44,007 nucleotides of DNA from a virus (lineage: Duplodnaviria; Heunggongvirae; Uroviricota; Caudoviricetes), in IMG/VR virus record IMGVR_UViG_2636415673_000006. One strand, given 5' to 3'. Both the position numbers and the translations under genes were made by a program. The notes under the pieces are model-generated. The model was given only the letters and a program-made list of their open reading frames with translations, did no database searches and was not told where the DNA came from. Below, piece by piece: positions 1 to 44,007 of the stretch (positions are counted from its first letter, which is position 1; each line of letters begins with the position of its first letter).

Positions 1-525
1 TCACTAGATTCTGACGATTTCCAGAAGGGAGATTCAGCAGGCCAGCATCTGTAATCATTCAGATTTGCTGGCTTGCTGCTAAATATGGTTGCTAAGAAAA
101 ATAGCAGGCCAGTAATTTATTCAGATTACTGAATATAATAATTTTTCAGGAACGGTTATGCTGAAGGTAGTATGTTTAATCGACACAATTATTTGCTGAG
201 TCTAATATGAGGTGACATTTTTATGATCACTGACCAGCAAGACTGACCCGTATTGATTAGCCTGATTATTGGCAACTTATTGGGGTAGTCATTTTGACAT
301 CGAATGGGGGAGGTTTCCAGTTAAGTTCACGAATGCATGATGATTTGCGTTCACATATCGAAGTACTGGTTGACTATACTAAGGATTTTAAGATAACTCA
401 CTGATTGTAAGTGGGTTATTGCGAGGGGGATGATAAATGGTGTCCCCTGCAGACATCTACTTGAGGATGCAGGGGATTGATTGGAATGGTATTTTTGGTA
501 TGTGAAAAATATTTTACTCGCTATT

Positions 526-726: not shown

Positions 727-770
727 GAGTGCTATCTCCGAATAGGGAATCGAACCTGCAAATCAGGCAA

Positions 771-790
771 TAAAAAACCGCCATCAGGCG
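771..790 (-). terminator. Rho-independent terminator-like hairpin (leftward)
   Basis: Plus strand ccgcc-atca-ggcgg preceded by A6; on the minus strand this is a GC stem followed by a T-run. Confidence 0.35.
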
Positions 791-1008
791 GCTTGGTGTT
801 CTTTCAGTTCTTCAATTCGAATATTGGTTACGTCTGCATGTGCTATCTGCGCCCACAGCATCCAGTGGTCATAGCAGTCGTTGATGTTCTCTGCTTCGAT
901 AACTCTGTTGAATGGCTCTCCATTCCATTCACCAGTGACTCGGAAGTGCATTTATCATCTCCATAAAACAAAACCCGCCGTAGCGAGTTCAGATAAAAGA
1001 AATCCGCA

Positions 1009-1809
1009 TTAAGCGGCGTCGGTGAATTCAAATAAAAAACCGGCTTGCGCCGGCTCTCTCATCTTTCTGTCTACCCATGCTGATATCGATGGTGGGTGCA
1101 CCTTTTCAATAGCTGCGCGAAGTACAGATGTACGTGCCAGTTTGTCGGTAATCTCAGGAAATCGCTTCTCTGTCTTCGGTACGTTAACAGCAACATTAGT
1201 AGAATCCGCACTGGCGAACGGATACATACCAAGAACTCTCACGTCGAGCATTCGAAGACCATGAATTTTCACTTTCAAATTACGATTGATATAAAGCTCA
1301 GTGAAAACTTCATCCATTCTCTGTTCCCACCATTTAGAGCGTATGTGCCTGTGTGGGCCGCAGCATCCAATCGCCACCCATTCAAATTTGCCAGAAAGGC
1401 GTAAAAGACGATCAATTGATTCGTCGGTATGCCAGACCGGAACCGCTTTTGATTTTAGCCAATCAGGAACCAACTCAATCTGCTTGTCGTTTTCTGCCTC
1501 TGTCCCTTCGATAACGTCAGGTATAAGAAACCATTCAATTCTGCTGAACCACTTCCCAACAAAATCGTAGAATTTTGCTCGTCTCTTACTCCAGTCTACC
1601 GGAGTGCCTTTCTTTAATGCTTTCATCCAGTCGCTAAAAGCGCCGTTATCAAGGCGTATATCACAAGGGAACATGGCAATCTTTTTCATCTGCGCTGGTC
1701 TGGCAAATGAAACAAAAGCCCCACCATCACGGTAAAGGGCTTTAATCAGCATATCTGTAGGGGCATGCGCATCCCCCCATATTGGGCTGCCGTGAAAGTG
1801 GATGGTCAT
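1009..1809 (-). CDS. Conserved lambdoid early-left protein; candidate tRNA-guanine-transglycosylase-like (DpdA-like) DNA-modification enzyme
   Basis: 266-aa ORF. Motif RLDNGAFSDW resembles the TGT substrate-binding motif LTDSGGFQ, and the C-terminal half (FEWVAIG...HGLRML...FASADST) loosely parallels the TGT GGLAVGE...YLMGVG...MFDCV blocks. No PP-loop (SGGxDS), so not PAPS-reductase/DndC-like. The gene is confident; the function is tentative. Confidence 0.45.
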   Translation of the reverse strand: MTIHFHGSPIWGDAHAPTDMLIKALYRDGGAFVSFARPAQMKKIAMFPCDIRLDNGAFSDWMKALKKGTPVDWSKRRAKFYDFVGKWFSRIEWFLIPDVIEGTEAENDKQIELVPDWLKSKAVPVWHTDESIDRLLRLSGKFEWVAIGCCGPHRHIRSKWWEQRMDEVFTELYINRNLKVKIHGLRMLDVRVLGMYPFASADSTNVAVNVPKTEKRFPEITDKLARTSVLRAAIEKVHPPSISAWVDRKMREPAQAGFLFEFTDAA

Positions 1810-1867
1810 ATTATCCCCATATAAAAGAAATCCCCGCGAGTGCGAGGATAGTTACTTGTTCATATTA

Positions 1868-2263: not shown

Positions 2264-2920
2264 TTATAGCTCCTTTAATCGAGGCGGTTCTGGTAGAGGC
2301 ATCCAGTGGGTTACACCGCCAATTGGCTCATCGTCGTCGTACTCCAATGCGGCTATATAGAACCCGTCACGACGAGAATAAGAAATCCCTGACATTACAA
2401 TGCCATCCGAAACAACAATAATGTCACCCGTTTCTTCCGGCATTCGCTCACTACAGCTTATCCAACCATCCGGAATTACCGGAGAGTTGCCGCGTTCTTT
2501 AATGTGCAAGCGAGGCTCACCATCTTTTGGTTCAGGCCACTGGCGCTCCATGTTGATCTTCAATTTATCTTCCATAGCAGCGGTAATTTCAGCATCGCTG
2601 ATGCCAGCACGGCGCTGTGCATCCCACAACAGGAACTGCATATCAGCCCACTCGCTGAGATCGTCTGGTTCGGCTGCGGCTTCCAGAGCCTCTTTTGAGA
2701 GGTGTTTCAGTGGACCAATGGGGCCAACGCAGCCAAATGTGGAGTCAGACCATTTGGCATGCTCGTGGTGAATCTGTTCGCGTTCCAGTGAGGCGAAAGC
2801 GATTTTAAATGCTGTAAGCATGTGTGCTTGATCGTTGTCGAGTCCGAATGGCATTTCATCTCGTGCTGACTCAATACTGGTAATCGTATTTTGTAGCCAT
2901 TCTTTGGTAAAAGTGCTCAT
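2264..2920 (-). CDS. Lambdoid early protein with DUF551-like C-terminus (DUF550/DUF551 family)
   Basis: 218-aa ORF; C-terminal motif GVTHWMPLPEPP is characteristic of DUF551 proteins common in lambdoid prophages; stop overlaps the upstream gene start (coupling). Confidence 0.5.
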   Translation of the reverse strand: MSTFTKEWLQNTITSIESARDEMPFGLDNDQAHMLTAFKIAFASLEREQIHHEHAKWSDSTFGCVGPIGPLKHLSKEALEAAAEPDDLSEWADMQFLLWDAQRRAGISDAEITAAMEDKLKINMERQWPEPKDGEPRLHIKERGNSPVIPDGWISCSERMPEETGDIIVVSDGIVMSGISYSRRDGFYIAALEYDDDEPIGGVTHWMPLPEPPRLKEL

Positions 2921-3582: not shown

Positions 3583-3659
3583 ATGAAGATTTTGTTTTTC
3601 ATGCTCACCGTTCCTTAAAGACGCCGTACAGCATGCTGATATGAGACAATGTTGATTCA

Positions 3660-4724
3660 TTAAGTTGATTCCAGACTTCCTTTGGTAAAAGCTTGTATCA
3701 GTCTGTTTGCTGCTGCTTTCTGCGCTGCCACATTGGCAATAACAGATAGTTTTTCCTGGCTGGCTTTCGTGCAGATCCCCGCCCAGTTATCCATCAGAAA
3801 AAAATCCTCTCTTTCTGCAGAGCTGGTAGTTGCACATAGTTTTTCGATCATAGAAGTTATTTCTGCGATGGAATGATTAACCATCATCTGTTGAACCGCA
3901 AAACCGAAAGCGTTAATCATTACTCCATGGAACTGAATATAATCGCGCTTGTACGTAGCGTGGTGTACACCATGTCGGATTGAGTCAATCTGAGTTAGTG
4001 TAATCCATGCCTCCCAGACAGATTCTATATATCCCATTTCAAGTTGTTGATTGCCGTTCCTGGCGAACTTTGACGTTGCATCAGTGAGTGCCTTGAAACT
4101 CACCCACATATTACTTTTTAATGGCACTACGTTGTGTTCAAAATCGGTTATATCGGCAAATACAGTATGTTGGGTCAGGAAGGATATCATTCCCTGAGCA
4201 ATATCATCCCGGCCGTTATACGCCATATTGATGGTCGCTGATGGCTTAGAAACGTTGTTATTTATGTCCGAAAAGAACTGCTGCCGGGTTTTTAGCGGCA
4301 GATTCATTGTAAGCATCATGGGAACCATGAGCGTTGATGGGGAACTTCGGCAAAATATCTCAATGCCAGCTGCACGATGTTGACCATCAAAAAGTTTTAT
4401 TTCGGCGTCGAGGGGAATTCTGGCTATACCAACATTTGTGTTGCCAAACGGTACAAATTCTATATTCGAATCACAGTTACCTACGAGAGGGGGAATGATA
4501 AAAGGCTCATTTCTTGAGTCTGCGTTAGTGAGATAATTTAAAAATTTTCGTACTCGATTTGGATTAATTTCTCGCTGAGAGCGTTCCAGTGTATGGCCGT
4601 AATTATCTGAAGCGAGGAAACGAGCCAGCGATCTTCCTGGTATGGTAAGGAAGAGTGTAACAGTACCACCCTGTACACCTTGCGATGCCGGAAATTCGAA
4701 TGAATGATTACCAACCTGACTCAT
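3660..4724 (-). CDS. DGQHR-domain protein (DndB/DpdB-like, ParB-like fold)
   Basis: 354-aa ORF containing the exact DGQHR signature (KLFDGQHRAAGIE) about 120 residues from the N-terminus, as in DndB/DpdB family proteins. Confidence 0.75.
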   Translation of the reverse strand: MSQVGNHSFEFPASQGVQGGTVTLFLTIPGRSLARFLASDNYGHTLERSQREINPNRVRKFLNYLTNADSRNEPFIIPPLVGNCDSNIEFVPFGNTNVGIARIPLDAEIKLFDGQHRAAGIEIFCRSSPSTLMVPMMLTMNLPLKTRQQFFSDINNNVSKPSATINMAYNGRDDIAQGMISFLTQHTVFADITDFEHNVVPLKSNMWVSFKALTDATSKFARNGNQQLEMGYIESVWEAWITLTQIDSIRHGVHHATYKRDYIQFHGVMINAFGFAVQQMMVNHSIAEITSMIEKLCATTSSAEREDFFLMDNWAGICTKASQEKLSVIANVAAQKAAANRLIQAFTKGSLEST

Positions 4725-11818: not shown

Positions 11819-13345
11819 ATGAAAAAAGCCATAGCATATATGCGATTTTCATCACCAGGTCAGATATCTGGTGACTCATTAAACCGACAGAGAAGACTTA
11901 TTGCTGAATGGTTAAAGGTAAATAGTGATTATTATCTTGATACCATAACATATGAAGATTTAGGATTAAGTGCATTCAAAGGAAAGCATGCACAATCAGG
12001 AGCTTTTTCGGAATTTTTAGATGCTATAGAGCATGGTTATATATTGCCAGGAACTACATTGTTAGTTGAAAGTCTGGACAGACTTTCAAGAGAAAAAGTC
12101 GGTGAAGCGATTGAACGTCTGAAATTGATTTTGAATCACGGTATTGATGTTATAACTCTTTGCGACAATACAGTCTATAATATTGACTCTTTGAATGAGC
12201 CATATTCATTAATAAAAGCCATACTTATAGCACAAAGGGCAAATGAAGAAAGCGAGATAAAGTCAAGTCGGGTTAAATTATCATGGAAGAAAAAACGGCA
12301 GGATGCACTGGAATCAGGTACGATTATGACGGCGTCTTGTCCGAGATGGCTCTCATTGGATGACAAAAGAACGGCTTTTGTTCCAGACCCCGACAGGGTG
12401 AAAACTATTGAGCTAATTTTTAAACTCAGGATGGAAAGGCGCTCATTGAATGCAATAGCCAAGTATTTAAATGATCATGCTGTAAAGAATTTCTCAGGAA
12501 AAGAAAGTGCATGGGGACCTTCTGTAATTGAAAAATTATTAGCGAATAAAGCTCTGATAGGTATATGCGTACCTTCATATCGTGCAAGAGGGAAAGGGAT
12601 AAGTGAAATCGCTGGCTATTATCCCAGAGTCATATCAGATGATTTGTTTTACGCTGTACAGGAAATTCGGTTGGCACCTTTTGGTATTAGCAATAGTAGC
12701 AAGAATCCTATGCTAATAAATCTACTTCGAACAGTTATGAAGTGTGAGGCTTGTGGTAATACCATGATTGTTCATGCGGTATCTGGAAGTTTGCATGGCT
12801 ATTATGTTTGTCCGATGAGAAGATTACATCGATGTGACAGGCCATCAATAAAAAGAGATTTGGTTGATTATAATATCATTAATGAATTGCTTTTTAATTG
12901 TAGCAAAATTCAACCAGTTGAAAACAAGAAAGATGCTAATGAAACTTTAGAGTTAAAAATTATTGAGCTTCAGATGAAAATTAATAATTTAATTGCTGCA
13001 TTATCTGTTGCGCCTGAAGTTACCGCTATAGCAGAAAAAATCAGAGTATTAGATAAGGAATTACGAAGGGCTTCTGTATCATTAAAAACTTTGAAGAGTA
13101 AAGCGGTGAGCTCACTTGGTGATTTTCATGCTATTGACTTAACCAGTAAAAATGGGCGAGAGCTATGTCGTACACTTGCCTATAAAACATTCGAAAAAAT
13201 CATAATCAATACAGATAATAAAACCTGTGATATCTATTTTATGAATGGCATTGTTTTTAAACACTATCCTTTAATGAAAACAATATCCGCCCAGCAGGCG
13301 ATAAGTACTCTCAAATATATGGTTGATGGTGAGGTTTATTTTTGA
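11819..13345 (+). CDS. ybcK: Large serine recombinase (resolvase/invertase N-domain + recombinase domain + zinc ribbon), YbcK-like
   Basis: 508-aa ORF; N-terminal serine-recombinase motif (AIAYMRFSSPGQ...SLDRLSRE) and C-terminal Cys cluster (CEACGNTM...YYVCPMRRLHRC); AT-rich gene. Confidence 0.8.
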   Translation: MKKAIAYMRFSSPGQISGDSLNRQRRLIAEWLKVNSDYYLDTITYEDLGLSAFKGKHAQSGAFSEFLDAIEHGYILPGTTLLVESLDRLSREKVGEAIERLKLILNHGIDVITLCDNTVYNIDSLNEPYSLIKAILIAQRANEESEIKSSRVKLSWKKKRQDALESGTIMTASCPRWLSLDDKRTAFVPDPDRVKTIELIFKLRMERRSLNAIAKYLNDHAVKNFSGKESAWGPSVIEKLLANKALIGICVPSYRARGKGISEIAGYYPRVISDDLFYAVQEIRLAPFGISNSSKNPMLINLLRTVMKCEACGNTMIVHAVSGSLHGYYVCPMRRLHRCDRPSIKRDLVDYNIINELLFNCSKIQPVENKKDANETLELKIIELQMKINNLIAALSVAPEVTAIAEKIRVLDKELRRASVSLKTLKSKAVSSLGDFHAIDLTSKNGRELCRTLAYKTFEKIIINTDNKTCDIYFMNGIVFKHYPLMKTISAQQAISTLKYMVDGEVYF

Positions 13346-17669: not shown

Positions 17670-18629
17670 ATGATAAAAAAACCTGTGATTGGAATCAGCG
17701 GTTGTTTGGCCGGCTCTGCTGTTCGTTTTGATGGTGGTCACAAAAGAGCTGACTTTTTAATGGACAAATTAGTGGAATGGGTAACATTCAGACCAGTATG
17801 TCCGGAAATGGCTATAGGGCTGCCAGTTCCGCGTCCTGCTCTACGTCTTGTGCGCTCGACGCAAGGAAATATACGGATGTGTTTCAGCCACGACCAGAAT
17901 GAGGATGTGACAGAGAGAATGACAGAGTTTAGTCGTTCTTATATGGACAAATTAAAGGATGTATCGGGGTTTGTGGTTTGTGCTAAATCTCCCAGCTGTG
18001 GCATGGAGCGCGTGCGTGTCTATGATGAAAATGGTAATCGAGGTCGTAAAGATGGAGTGGGACTATTTACGAGCACTTTGATGGAAAAGTTTTCCTGGCT
18101 ACCGGTTGAAGAGGATGGGCGATTACATGATCCAGTGCTTCGTGAGAATTTTGTTGAAAGAGTTTTTGCTTTGCATGAGCTCAATCACCTTTACAAGGAG
18201 AAATTATCAAGAAGAGAGTTATTAGCTTTTCATAGTCGTTATAAGCTTCAGTTGTTGGCGCATAGTCAGGCAGGCTATAAAGATATGGGACCATTTGTGG
18301 CTGCAATACACGAGTGGGCGGACCTTGAATCATACTTTGAGGTGTATCGTGATAAGCTGATGGCGATTCTCAGAAAACCTGCATCACGTAAAAATCACAC
18401 GAATGTGCTGATGCATATACAGGGGTATTTTAGTAACTACTTAAGTACACGCCAGCGTAAAGAGTTGAGCGAGGTTATACTTAACTATCGTTCTGGCACA
18501 TTACCTCTTCTTGCGCCGTTGACTCTGCTGAAGCATTATCTGGGTGAGTATCCTAATGATTACTTGCTTACACAGAATTACTTCGCTCCCTATCCGGACG
18601 AACTGGCTCTAAGACTGATGGTAAATTAA
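17670..18629 (+). CDS. YbgA-like protein (DUF523/DUF1722 family)
   Basis: 319-aa ORF; N-terminus PVIGISGCLAGSAVRFDGGHK and domain organisation resemble E. coli YbgA; RBS GGGGGAG before the ATG. Confidence 0.6.
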   Translation: MIKKPVIGISGCLAGSAVRFDGGHKRADFLMDKLVEWVTFRPVCPEMAIGLPVPRPALRLVRSTQGNIRMCFSHDQNEDVTERMTEFSRSYMDKLKDVSGFVVCAKSPSCGMERVRVYDENGNRGRKDGVGLFTSTLMEKFSWLPVEEDGRLHDPVLRENFVERVFALHELNHLYKEKLSRRELLAFHSRYKLQLLAHSQAGYKDMGPFVAAIHEWADLESYFEVYRDKLMAILRKPASRKNHTNVLMHIQGYFSNYLSTRQRKELSEVILNYRSGTLPLLAPLTLLKHYLGEYPNDYLLTQNYFAPYPDELALRLMVN

Positions 18630-18971: not shown

Positions 18972-19712
18972 GTGGATAATATGCCATACATATGTTCTAT
19001 CATTTTGGTGTTGAACTCGTTTGATGTCCGAATTGGTAAAGAAGATATTTTGTTTAAAAAAGGAAGTGCTGTTCTCATTGATTACAATTTAAAAGATTTT
19101 TTTTCATCAAATATAGATCATGTAATGATCGTAGATGTTGAAGAGAAAACAGTTAATGATTTCTTTAAAAGCAACACACTCTCACCTTTTTCTGTAAGAA
19201 GGTTTTATCCGGCATACTTGATGGTGGAATGTGAAGATTTTTCATTGTTAAAGAACTTGATTGCATGCTTGAATTGTGATGGCAGAACTGTGGATTTTGT
19301 TAGAAATCAAATATCACTTGCATGTCTTGCTATCTTATCTTCAGAGAAAATAGTGCAAAGTTTTTTATTTGGATGTCTTAATAGTTTAGGAAGTAAAGTT
19401 AAGGCTATTATTCACACGGATATATCTGCAGCATGGAGACTTTGTGATATATCTTCAAGACTGTATCTGAGTGAAAGTCTGTTAAAAAGAAAATTAAAGC
19501 ACGAAGGCTTATCATTTAGTAAGTTAATTCTTGAAGAGCGAATGGTGATGGCGGAAAGGTTATTAAGCTACAATTTATATTCTGTTGGAAAAGTTGCTGA
19601 GATATGCGGTTATGAAAACACGTCATATTTTGTAAGTGTTTTCAGAAGATATTTTGGTGTTCCTCCCCATCAATATTCATCAAGACTTTTTTTAGAAAAA
19701 GACATGATGTAA
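18972..19712 (+). CDS. AraC/XylS-family transcriptional regulator (AppY/EnvY/YbcM-like)
   Basis: 246-aa ORF with C-terminal AraC HTH (VGKVAEICGYENTSYFVSVFRRYFGVPPHQY); very AT-rich gene. Confidence 0.8.
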   Translation: MDNMPYICSIILVLNSFDVRIGKEDILFKKGSAVLIDYNLKDFFSSNIDHVMIVDVEEKTVNDFFKSNTLSPFSVRRFYPAYLMVECEDFSLLKNLIACLNCDGRTVDFVRNQISLACLAILSSEKIVQSFLFGCLNSLGSKVKAIIHTDISAAWRLCDISSRLYLSESLLKRKLKHEGLSFSKLILEERMVMAERLLSYNLYSVGKVAEICGYENTSYFVSVFRRYFGVPPHQYSSRLFLEKDMM

Positions 19713-41584: not shown

Positions 41585-42709
41585 TTAAGATATTCTTTTA
41601 GCTATAGAATGACCTATATTTATAAACGGTTTTTCTATTACGTTATATATCAAGTAAGATAGGCTTATAGAAATTATGAGCGATGATATATAAATGGCAA
41701 ACGATCTATGTTCAGTGCTAACACCAATGCTGGAACCGTAAAACTCAATAAACTGTATAACAGGAACATGAATCAGATAAAGTGAATATGATATTCCACC
41801 AAGAGCAACAAGTGATTTATTGAATGAAATAACTTTATTATTTTCTAGAATAATAACACATAAAACAATCAGAAATGCAATATATGCAGATCGCGTCAAA
41901 CCATGTCCTTCAGACACCCCATTAAGCCAAAAAACAAACATCATTCCTAGAATGAAAACGCATAAACTATTTATAATAGCATTATTCATTCTTTTATGCC
42001 TAAGTAAAGGCATTGTCTCTGATATAATCATCCCTAAAATGAAATCATATACTATAGGGTTGCCTATGAATCCTATATGAGAAAACACTCCTGTTTTTGC
42101 AATATTGAATGATTGGGCGTCAATTACTACCGAGTGGTTAAAGTAAAGAGAAATAATTGTACTTACAGCAACTAGAAAACATGATGTGATTAATACCCTG
42201 TATTTTATACTTAATGACATGGATATTGCGAAAATAAAATAAAAATATATCTCGTACCCAAGTGACCATGAAACAATTAGCGTTCCCCACCCATAATATG
42301 GCGGTAGAGTTGAGCCATCTAAAGGGATGAGAAGAAATGATTTTATAATATTATTTATAGAAAAAACACCACCCCATGATACGCCTGTGTAAATATTGTG
42401 GTAAAAAAGAAAAACATAAACGCTTAATACTATTGCGTAAACAGGATAAATTCTAAAAAATCTCTTTACAAGAAATGAAGCGGTATTTCTTAAAGATGTT
42501 TTTGCTAAGTTTTTAGTTGAGTATGATATTATAAATCCGCTTATTATAAAAAACAATTCAACTCCAAATATAGCATTCGCGGTTATCTTGTCCATGAAAG
42601 AACCAGGATCTACTTGCCCGAAAAGACCTCTATTATGACCAATAGCTACAGCAAGAGCTGCAATTCCACGAAGCGCTTCTATTCCGTATAATTTATCTGT
42701 TTTCATCAA
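41585..42709 (-). CDS. Acyltransferase family 3 integral membrane protein (putative O-antigen/LPS O-acetyltransferase, lysogenic-conversion gene)
   Basis: 374-aa polytopic membrane ORF with the family N-terminus (LYGIEALRGIAALAVAIGHN); extremely AT-rich; located between tail fibre genes and integrase. Confidence 0.75.
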   Translation of the reverse strand: MMKTDKLYGIEALRGIAALAVAIGHNRGLFGQVDPGSFMDKITANAIFGVELFFIISGFIISYSTKNLAKTSLRNTASFLVKRFFRIYPVYAIVLSVYVFLFYHNIYTGVSWGGVFSINNIIKSFLLIPLDGSTLPPYYGWGTLIVSWSLGYEIYFYFIFAISMSLSIKYRVLITSCFLVAVSTIISLYFNHSVVIDAQSFNIAKTGVFSHIGFIGNPIVYDFILGMIISETMPLLRHKRMNNAIINSLCVFILGMMFVFWLNGVSEGHGLTRSAYIAFLIVLCVIILENNKVISFNKSLVALGGISYSLYLIHVPVIQFIEFYGSSIGVSTEHRSFAIYISSLIISISLSYLIYNVIEKPFINIGHSIAKRIS

Positions 42710-42849: not shown

Positions 42850-44007
42850 CTATGATACCTTCTCCTCAATCCAATCCGCCCACCACTGCATCATTTCTCT
42901 GCGCTTATCGAGATACTGAGCATGGTTGTAAATCCCGCGCACAGATCCGCCGTTGGCATGTGCCAGTTGCACTTCAATAGCATCAGCAGGCCATTCGTGC
43001 TCGTTCATAATCGTGCTGAATTCATGCCTGAATCCGTGACCGCTTTCCAGACCTTCATAGCCGATTTGTTTGATCACAAGCAGTACAGCGTTCTCGCAAA
43101 TTGGCTTCTTCTTATCGTTGCGCCCGGCAAAAACAAACTCTGATACTGGTTTGGTGATTGAACTTAGCGTAGTGAGAAGTTCAACTACCTGGTCTGACAT
43201 AGGAACCACATGAATTTTGCGTCCCTTCATCACACTGGCGTCGATGGTGATAATCCTGTTTTCAAAATCGACGTTCTTCCATAGCATGGAACGAAGCTCT
43301 TTTGTTCTGAGGGCAGTGTAGCGTAAAACTTTGGTCGCAATGAGCGATACGATACTTCCTGAAAATGTTGCCAGTGCTTTGTTGAATGCCGGGATCTGGT
43401 CTGCAGGAAGAAACGGGAAGTTCTTCTTGCGGTATCCTTTCATGGCGTCAGCAAGGTCAGGTGCCGGGTTATATTTAGCCCTGCCTGTGACAATAGCGTA
43501 ACGGAAAACCTCGCCGCATCTTCTGCGGGCTTTATTGGCTCGTTCCATTGCGCCGCGATCTTCAAATCTGCGGATTACTTCCAACAGTTGCATCGGCTCA
43601 ATATCCTGAATTTCAAGGCCGCCGATGATGGGTAAAATGTCGTCATCAAACATTTTTGCAAGTTCATTTGCATAGCCTACTGACCAGACTTGCTTCTTGT
43701 GCTCGTACCATTCCTTGTAAATGGCGCTAAAGGAGTTGTTGTTAGACGAAGCCTTTTTCGCTTTTACCGGATCGATGCCAACCGAGATGTCTTTCCTCGC
43801 AGTCCATGCTTTATCCCTTGCCTCCTGCAAAGTCATAAGCGGATATTTTCCTACGGTCAGTATTTTTTCCTTACCGTCAATCTTGTAGCGAAGCTGCCAT
43901 ACCTTTTTCCCGGATACAGGGACATAAAGGTACAGGCCATTACCATCGAGAAGGCGGTATGGTTTTTCTTTCGGCTTTGCTGCTTCAATCTGCTTAACGG
44001 TGAGCAT
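42850..44007 (-). CDS. int: Tyrosine integrase (P4/DLP12 IntD type)
   Basis: 385-aa ORF whose ATG is the last codon of the window (MLTVKQIEAAKPKEKPYRLLDGNGLYLYV...); C-terminal catalytic region HGFRHEFSTIMNE...AHANGGSVRGIYNHAQY contains the conserved R/H/R/Y residues. Confidence 0.9.
   Translation of the reverse strand: MLTVKQIEAAKPKEKPYRLLDGNGLYLYVPVSGKKVWQLRYKIDGKEKILTVGKYPLMTLQEARDKAWTARKDISVGIDPVKAKKASSNNNSFSAIYKEWYEHKKQVWSVGYANELAKMFDDDILPIIGGLEIQDIEPMQLLEVIRRFEDRGAMERANKARRRCGEVFRYAIVTGRAKYNPAPDLADAMKGYRKKNFPFLPADQIPAFNKALATFSGSIVSLIATKVLRYTALRTKELRSMLWKNVDFENRIITIDASVMKGRKIHVVPMSDQVVELLTTLSSITKPVSEFVFAGRNDKKKPICENAVLLVIKQIGYEGLESGHGFRHEFSTIMNEHEWPADAIEVQLAHANGGSVRGIYNHAQYLDKRREMMQWWADWIEEKVS

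Follow-up and report, generated by a model that had tools for sequence, protein, structure and literature searches.

A compact DpdA-like protein lacking a zinc site is carried as a cassette in a lambda-like Escherichia coli prophage and most likely inserts host-made 7-deazaguanine into phage DNA

A 266-aa open reading frame (ORF) at positions 1009 to 1809 of the DNA analyzed here (hereafter the window, comprising all 44,007 nucleotides of IMG/VR virus record IMGVR_UViG_2636415673_000006) most likely encodes a compact phage DpdA (DpdA1, of the "DpdA-only" group) that inserts host-made 7-deazaguanine into phage DNA. The ORF, present from ATG to stop in the ORF list, lies on the minus strand, with its start codon at 1809 and its stop codon at 1011-1009; a GGGGA Shine-Dalgarno-like sequence is found upstream of the ATG, and the start Met is common to homologs. 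An earlier sequence-only reading of this DNA had reported the ORF, a motif resembling that of tRNA-guanine transglycosylases (TGTs), the lack of a zinc site, and a cluster of Cys and His residues, and had proposed a compact DNA-guanine transglycosylase variant or an unrelated fold. That observation is partly confirmed, since the strand had to be added and the cluster proved meaningless. The proposal of a compact DpdA-type enzyme is supported by the PHROG 887 assignment, homology to the DpdA of Escherichia phage CAjan, a TIM-barrel model, and conserved residues.

The protein is assigned to phrog_887, "queuine tRNA-ribosyltransferase" (PHROGs; E=4.8e-101), to which CAjan DpdA also belongs (E=8.2e-96). 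CAjan DpdA matched the 266-aa protein directly (BLASTP E=3e-5) as well as a 40-sequence profile of it (hhalign probability 95.4%, E=2e-8), in an alignment that is in register at LDNGAFS/LDSGAFS, VWH/CFH, AIG/TIG, and SADS/SCDS. Deletion of dpdA in CAjan results in the loss of dPreQ0 from phage DNA (Hutinet et al., 2019; PMC6884629). A tblastn search of phage genomes recovered homologs in HK106 (97% identity), Pectobacterium phage PEAT2 (64%), and Salmonella phage 7-11 (56%), with weaker matches in SEN1 (39%), BTP1, and SPN3UB (both 34%). For all six phages, Supplementary Data 1 of Hutinet et al. (2019; PMC6884629) has an entry under DpdA, and it places them in a group in which DpdA is present and preQ0/G+ synthesis genes are absent. 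A profile search returned 1897 representatives of 50% identity clusters at E<=1e-3, and the median length among the best 150 of these is 245 aa, indicating that the compact form is the norm in this family.

Pfam, NCBIfam, and PADLOC gave no match for the 266-aa protein, and neither it nor 90 relatives matched Pfam TGT (PF01702). Searches of PDB sequences with phmmer and a profile hmmsearch yielded chance matches only, CAjan DpdA had no match among PDB sequences, and comparison of a 90-sequence profile with the single E. coli Tgt sequence was null (hhalign probability 1.5%). Alignment to characterized phage and bacterial DpdA had been suggested as a check on the sequence-only reading; it succeeded for the phage enzyme of CAjan and failed for the bacterial one, as the PADLOC DpdA model gave no match to the protein at E<=1. 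Among the 90 relatives only CAjan DpdA touches that model (1.3e-3), and its segment IGG...SCDS weakly matches model positions 200-259, which span G206/G207 and D256.

An AlphaFold2 model built from the 40-sequence alignment (mean pLDDT 90.5, pTM 0.87) has the alternating strand/helix pattern of a TIM barrel, the TGT-superfamily fold expected of a phage DpdA, with disorder limited to the last 11 residues (256-266; pLDDT<50). With Foldseek, another suggested check, generic barrels dominate the PDB matches, with Cap10 ranked second, and every named match at E<=1e-3 in a viral structure library is a phage "queuine tRNA-ribosyltransferase". The latter include that of Dinoroseobacter phage R5C, which is also on the list of Hutinet et al. 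Taken alone, the predicted fold would be suggestive of a DpdA; the fold plus the sequence link to CAjan DpdA is convincing.

The counts of residue conservation come from 124 relatives, taken from clusters at <=50% identity. The TGT-like motif of the earlier reading, RLDNGAFSDW (residues 52-61; 1627..1656, minus strand), stands above chance: its residues 54-58 are near-invariant in these relatives (D54, A57, and F/Y58 in 122/124 each, N55 in 114/124, and G56 invariant or nearly so), and the motif, which lies at the C-terminal end of strand 50-54, aligns with the CAjan sequence LDSGAFS. We propose D54 as general acid/base and F58 as the residue that stacks on the base; the two share the D-x3-F pattern of D95/F99 in bacterial DpdA (PMC10164549), to which they are probably equivalent. 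D98 (1516..1518, minus strand) is present in all 124 relatives and the neighboring P97 in 122; by order and spacing, D98 would be the counterpart of D130 of bacterial DpdA and D122 of Cap10. H127, in the sequence VWH (1429..1431, minus strand), is conserved in 123/124 and aligns with the His of CAjan PCFHFGE. A conserved histidine of DpdA is mentioned in PMC6884629, as is H181 of the bacterial structure 7UI4 in PMC10164549; H127 is a candidate for this signature histidine, which DpdA2 lacks, or for the H181 equivalent. Further along, H183-G-L-R and S200-A-D202-S203 (1201..1263, minus strand) hold H183 and D202, the proposed nucleophile (D202) and its hydrogen-bond partner (H183), for which the H226/D248 pair of Cap10 is the analog; SADS aligns with SCDS of CAjan. 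H183 and D202 are each conserved in 114, and S203 in 111, of about 120 relatives without a gap.

In a 90-sequence alignment that includes CAjan DpdA, the columns of D54, H127, H183, D202, and S203 are invariant, and in the AlphaFold2 model the conserved residues are at or just past the C-terminal ends of consecutive strands, the usual place of a TIM-barrel active site. Three aspartates, candidates for acid/base, base recognition, and nucleophile, are retained across relatives (D54 in 122/124, D98 in 124/124, and D202 in 114/120). In bacterial DpdA the order of residues is D95-x3-F99, D130, H181, G206/G207, L236, and D256, with D95 and D256 being essential (PMC10164549), and in Cap10 it is D73/S74, D122, K154, and H226/D248 (10.1101/2025.04.06.647259). 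On the basis of order, spacing, and strand ends, D54, D98, and D202 would correspond to D95, D130, and D256 of 7UI4. This equivalence is well motivated, because the order matches that of two solved relatives and because the CAjan segment weakly matches the bacterial DpdA model.

The canonical TGT/DpdA zinc site is absent, as had been noted earlier: the protein has only three Cys residues (C49, C149, and C150) and no CxCxxC...H. Among 123 relatives, CxCxxC occurs in none and no Cys column is conserved; the validated CAjan DpdA likewise has no CxCxxC...H. The absence of the zinc site is a trait of the compact phage family, CAjan included, and not a peculiarity of the window gene. Hung et al. (2023; PMC10164549) reported that a CXCX2CX22H site and a large insertion, Ins8, are conserved across the bacterial DpdA family, so its absence genuinely sets the compact phage enzymes apart from bacterial DpdA and TGT. 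Ins8 also has no counterpart in the window protein, in which only about 64 residues follow the proposed nucleophile D202. A paper on phage iggy does not discuss zinc or structure.

The CCGPHRH cluster (residues 149-155), to which the sequence-only reading had drawn attention, is not conserved: Ser replaces C149 in 100/124 relatives and C150 in 87/124, and neither H153 nor H155 is constant. A replacement metal site formed by these residues was considered and is ruled out by this variation. The encompassing loop, G148-H155 (GCCGPHRH; 1345..1368, minus strand), follows strand 144-148 (strand 6), retains G148 in 119/124 relatives, and aligns with TIGGMVG of CAjan. By position it matches the Gly-rich loop through which TGT and DpdA contact the 7-substituent (PMC10164549), and therefore its variation (G-C-C-G in the window clade, G-S-S-G in the family, and G-G-M-V-G in CAjan) could affect base specificity. 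A bolder proposition, which we consider rather unlikely, is that this clade comprises minimal, zinc-free, helper-independent DNA transglycosylases working on the host pool of queuosine precursors, in which the Cys-Cys loop could shift specificity, for example to direct insertion of ADG; such a shift would, if true, account for the dADG in phage 7-11 DNA. In this scenario the one-gene cassette, borne by temperate coliphages, would give about 1.5% of E. coli strains a prophage capable of writing 7-deazaguanine marks into DNA.

The window phage is lambda-like and temperate (an E. coli prophage). On the minus strand the gene order is bet, exo, a DGQHR/DndB-like gene, a DksA/TraR-like gene, ea22, a dATP/dGTP pyrophosphohydrolase-DUF551 gene, ea8.5, the dpdA-like ORF, an orf55-like gene (lambdap35), and a xis-like gene. 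A cI-like repressor, O, P, and an integrase are encoded elsewhere in the window, and the sizes of later ORFs, judged by size alone, are consistent with terminase, head, and tail genes. By this gene order, the dpdA-like ORF is the distal part of the early-left operon driven by PL, and this position between ea8.5 and xis fits the label of an early protein given in the previous reading. The ORF is flanked by 16-nt direct repeats detected by a repeat search, CAGATAAAAGAAATCC on the left (990..1005) and CATATAAAAGAAATCC on the right (1818..1833), and both copies map to one lambda sequence between ea8.5 and lambdap35 (locus L012, 625-640). Window positions 758-1005 and 1818-1854 are contiguous in lambda with a 16-nt overlap; thus, 1006-1817 is an 812-bp insertion consisting nearly entirely of the dpdA-like ORF. 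The repeat resembles a target duplication, or else the joint of a short-homology recombination, left by insertion of a moron. At 95-100% identity the cassette is present in 82 of 5426 complete E. coli genomes, including strain W, and all 82 copies are chromosomal and annotated as "hypothetical protein". Unrelated lambdoid backbones carry it as well, HK106 being one example.

Two hairpins followed by U-tracts are associated with the gene. A terminator scan placed one, which is terminator-like, in the last ~15 codons of the ORF (1026..1059, minus strand; -17.2 kcal/mol, z=-4.8), about 20 nt before the stop codon and overlapping the disordered tail residues 256-266. A similar hairpin (73% over 40 nt) is present at 775-794. 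A stop codon would be missing from transcripts that end at the hairpin within the ORF, except when N antitermination carries transcription past it. The other (1830..1849, minus strand; -12.1 kcal/mol, z=-5.4) is between ea8.5 and the dpdA start; it is present in lambda and thus part of the backbone, outside the cassette.

Neighboring genes were examined in 80 viral loci that encode relatives. A gene for Vut_1 (a YhhQ-type preQ0 transporter) is located within 94 nt, and usually within 12 nt, of the dpdA homolog and on the same strand in 10 of 11 loci at 70-95% identity, in 10 of 14 at 50-70%, and in 2 of 25 below 50%; it was found in none of the 30 loci of the E. coli clade at >=95% identity. 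By Pfam gene calls, Vut_1 overlaps the homolog, being upstream in one lineage and downstream in another, and the linkage agrees with the GenBank annotation of PEAT2, PS25B.1, Tbat1_6, and Phleasolo. Que biosynthesis genes were found in none of the 80 loci, and neither Vut nor Que genes were found in the window, where tblastn with the CAjan Que proteins returned nothing. The lack of Vut in all 30 loci and of Que genes in the window fits the "DpdA-only" group of the literature, for which use of host preQ0 is assumed. Moreover, a DpdA-like protein 75% identical to that of the window (P0006) is naturally fused to a Dam DNA N6-adenine methyltransferase, giving a protein of 460 aa (locus L003, 7540-9383; also L004, L005, and L051), and this fusion indicates DNA as the substrate. 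In the same locus, a P22/lambda-like prophage with a SIR2_2 gene beside the repressor, an upstream Vut_1 gene overlaps the start of the fusion by 4 nt.

All 25 distinct gap-free alleles of the gene are intact, with a median pairwise dN/dS of 0.13, indicating that it is kept by purifying selection. In two further viral contigs (L068, 6175-6974; L069, 4049-4848) a 1-nt gap interrupts the alignment of the cassette (98% identity) with the window ORF, which may reflect frameshifted alleles or errors in sequencing.

For the activity of the protein, the base inserted, the target sequence, the timing, and the benefit, we infer the following by analogy. Like TGT and bacterial DpdA, the enzyme would exchange bases by double displacement. 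The deoxyguanosine to be replaced would flip into the C-terminal pocket of the barrel, where D202, oriented by H183, would attack C1', with guanine leaving, helped by D54, to give a covalent enzyme-DNA intermediate. D98, H127, and the G148 loop would bind a free 7-deazaguanine, most likely preQ0, whose attack via N9 would put dPreQ0, or a derivative (for example dADG), into the DNA. E. coli possesses a full preQ0 pathway. As the phage has neither Que nor transporter genes, the base must come from the host, presumably from this queuosine pathway (FolE/QueD/QueE/QueC), and host supply is the explanation offered for the DpdA-only group by Hutinet et al. (2019; PMC6884629). Given the distal position in the PL early-left operon, the enzyme would be expected early in lytic growth, so that replicated, double-stranded phage DNA could be modified before packaging. 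The expected benefit would be partial protection from restriction enzymes in the next host, as restriction evasion has been shown for other phages with 7-deazaguanine (PMC6884629). In phage 7-11, the sole member of the clade to have been measured, there were 50 dADG per 10^6 nt, or 0.02% of G, and no dPreQ0 (PMC6884629); a low level, and ADG as the final base, are therefore possible in the window phage as well.

That low level also bears on the alternative that the protein is a true DpdA homolog that is functionally marginal, a drifting moron with little or no insertion and no real protection. Besides the 0.02% of G in 7-11, no modification was found in phage Orion (PMC6884629), the E. coli clade lost or never had the Vut partner of its sister clades, the cassette is a rare accessory, and the two 1-nt gaps described above are possible frameshifts. 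However, the intact alleles and the low dN/dS speak against drift, every catalytic-candidate residue is kept, substrate is available because E. coli makes preQ0, and low-frequency, sequence-specific modification is still functional in bacterial Dpd. A marginal gene is thus unlikely. Less probable again is that the protein is a TGT-superfamily enzyme that acts on something other than DNA, either by base exchange in tRNA or on a protein-linked 7-deazaguanine, as Cap10 of type IV CBASS does. Cap10 (PDB 9NTN), at 9% identity, binds an NDG-modified CD-NTase and needs Cap9, yet no gene for a CD-NTase or a Cap9/QueC-like protein was found among the window ORFs scanned (a set that leaves out some small ORFs), by tblastn with CAjan QueC, or in the neighborhoods of relatives. 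The nearest validated relative by sequence, CAjan DpdA, is also zinc-free and is required for DNA modification, the DpdA of phage 9g fails to complement a tgt deletion (PMC6884629), and the Dam fusion, as noted, points to DNA.

Bacterial DpdA requires DpdB, a ParB-fold ATPase with a DGQQR motif (PMC10164549), raising the question of whether the DGQHR (DndB/ParB-fold) protein, whose gene is 1.85 kb away at 3660-4724, is the second member of a DpdA/DpdB-like pair. This 354-aa protein (TIGR03187, E=1.5e-55; PF14072, E=3.8e-46) is encoded in the same operon, and a "chromosome partitioning protein" is encoded beside the homolog in Pantoea phage AH07. Such a pair is nonetheless highly improbable. 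The DGQHR gene accompanies the cassette in only 2 of 30 close viral loci and in none at lower identity or in 15 other loci, it is absent from HK106 and three other prophage contexts, and in some E. coli genomes the DGQHR segment of the query finds a match but its dpdA segment does not. Moreover, the protein matches the PADLOC DndB model (4e-37) but none for DpdB, its gene is separated from dpdA by four unrelated genes, and DpdA2 enzymes act alone in E. coli. A DpdB analog is therefore rejected on the 2/30 co-occurrence and the DndB match, and the DGQHR gene is a mosaic neighbor. It should be noted that this gene (minus strand, phrog_7901), between exo and the DksA/TraR-like gene, has no dnd or ssp modification genes near it and that window positions 3641-4721 are without counterpart in the lambda segment compared. 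Finally, an unrelated TIM-barrel enzyme that carries a TGT-like motif by chance is scarcely credible for a motif near-invariant in 124 relatives.

The reading of a compact phage DpdA places the window gene beside several known systems. Closest is HK106 gp29 (YP_007151699 / AFH20717), which shares 97% identity along the full 266 residues, is one of the DpdA entries in PMC6884629, and is also at the distal end of PL, just before orf55-like, xis, and int genes of a lambdoid phage; its backbone differs, with an Erf/Abc2 recombination module and no ea8.5, exo/bet, or DGQHR gene, and it is still a "hypothetical protein" in GenBank. The DpdA-only enzyme of phage 7-11 (YP_004782407) is 56% identical, belongs to PHROG 887, and comes without phage Que genes, but is found in a lytic podovirus, is annotated at 234 aa, and is associated with dADG rather than dPreQ0. 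CAjan DpdA (YP_009196829; DpdA1), a genetically validated preQ0 DNA insertase, shares LD(N/S)GAFS, (W/F)H, IG, and S-x-DS and is likewise compact (306 aa) and free of CxCxxC...H. It differs in its ~17-24% identity, in a loop after strand 6 that reads GGMVG instead of GCCG, and in its phage, which has its own FolE/QueD/QueE/QueC and transporter and ~32% of G modified. The bacterial DpdA of S. Montevideo (PDB 7UI4) has ~413 residues in the crystal chain, Ins1-3, a 128-residue Ins8, and CXCX2CX22H, none of which occur in the window protein; bacterial Dpd, which needs the ATPase DpdB, is encoded in a dpdA-K cluster, whereas the window has no DpdB, DpdC, or dpdD-K and otherwise ordinary lambdoid genes. 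TGT (PF01702) shows no detectable sequence match to the window protein, which lacks its zinc subdomain; E. coli Tgt is about 110 residues longer and acts on tRNA, whereas the presumed substrate here is DNA.

The family, the role, and an orthologue of the window gene were thus already in the 2019 literature, such that the gene is known in kind and nearly in identity. The increments here are the explicit absence of the zinc site and Ins8 in a compact phage family, the cassette structure in a lambda backbone, the linkage of Vut in sister clades versus its absence in the E. coli clade, the DpdA-Dam fusion, and a lasting annotation gap. A literature search on DpdA together with HK106 or lambdoid prophages found no dedicated study. 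Modification of DNA with 7-deazaguanine is an established phage counter-defense against restriction enzymes. Here the system would be in its smallest form, a single 266-aa enzyme with no zinc site, helper ATPase, or biosynthesis genes that moves as a plug-in cassette among lambda-like prophages. Pfam, NCBIfam, and PADLOC miss the protein and RefSeq calls it "hypothetical" despite an orthologue in the 2019 survey, and a family model is missing. With lambda genetics, an E. coli host, and existing que mutants, the window phage also offers a tractable test case for DpdA-only phages.

Several genes around the cassette merit mention. The dATP/dGTP pyrophosphohydrolase (PF04447, 1.5e-41)-DUF551 fusion (2264-2920, minus strand) is two genes upstream of dpdA. 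The closeness of a dGTP-hydrolysing enzyme to a guanine-replacing one is suggestive, but a tblastn match to the fusion accompanies dpdA in only 15 of 30 close loci. On a short contig, a Lar restriction-alleviation gene (PF14354; locus L009, 235-537) is two genes upstream of a 98%-identical dpdA, which fits an anti-restriction theme in this part of the operon. Downstream of O/P, the window encodes a 508-aa large serine recombinase (11819-13345, plus strand) and, further on, a 2-thiouracil desulfurase/DUF1722 protein (17670-18629, plus strand) and an AraC-family regulator (18972-19712, plus strand), unusual cargo for a lambdoid phage. Past xis, window positions 1-525 hold no integrase, and none of the three reading frames on the xis strand contains a long ORF there. 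A complete integrase gene (385 aa) occupies 42850-44007 (minus strand), its start codon falling exactly at the window's final base, and an Acyl_transf_3 gene comes next (41585-42709). The xis-int junction may be the point at which a whole phage genome was opened to give the window.
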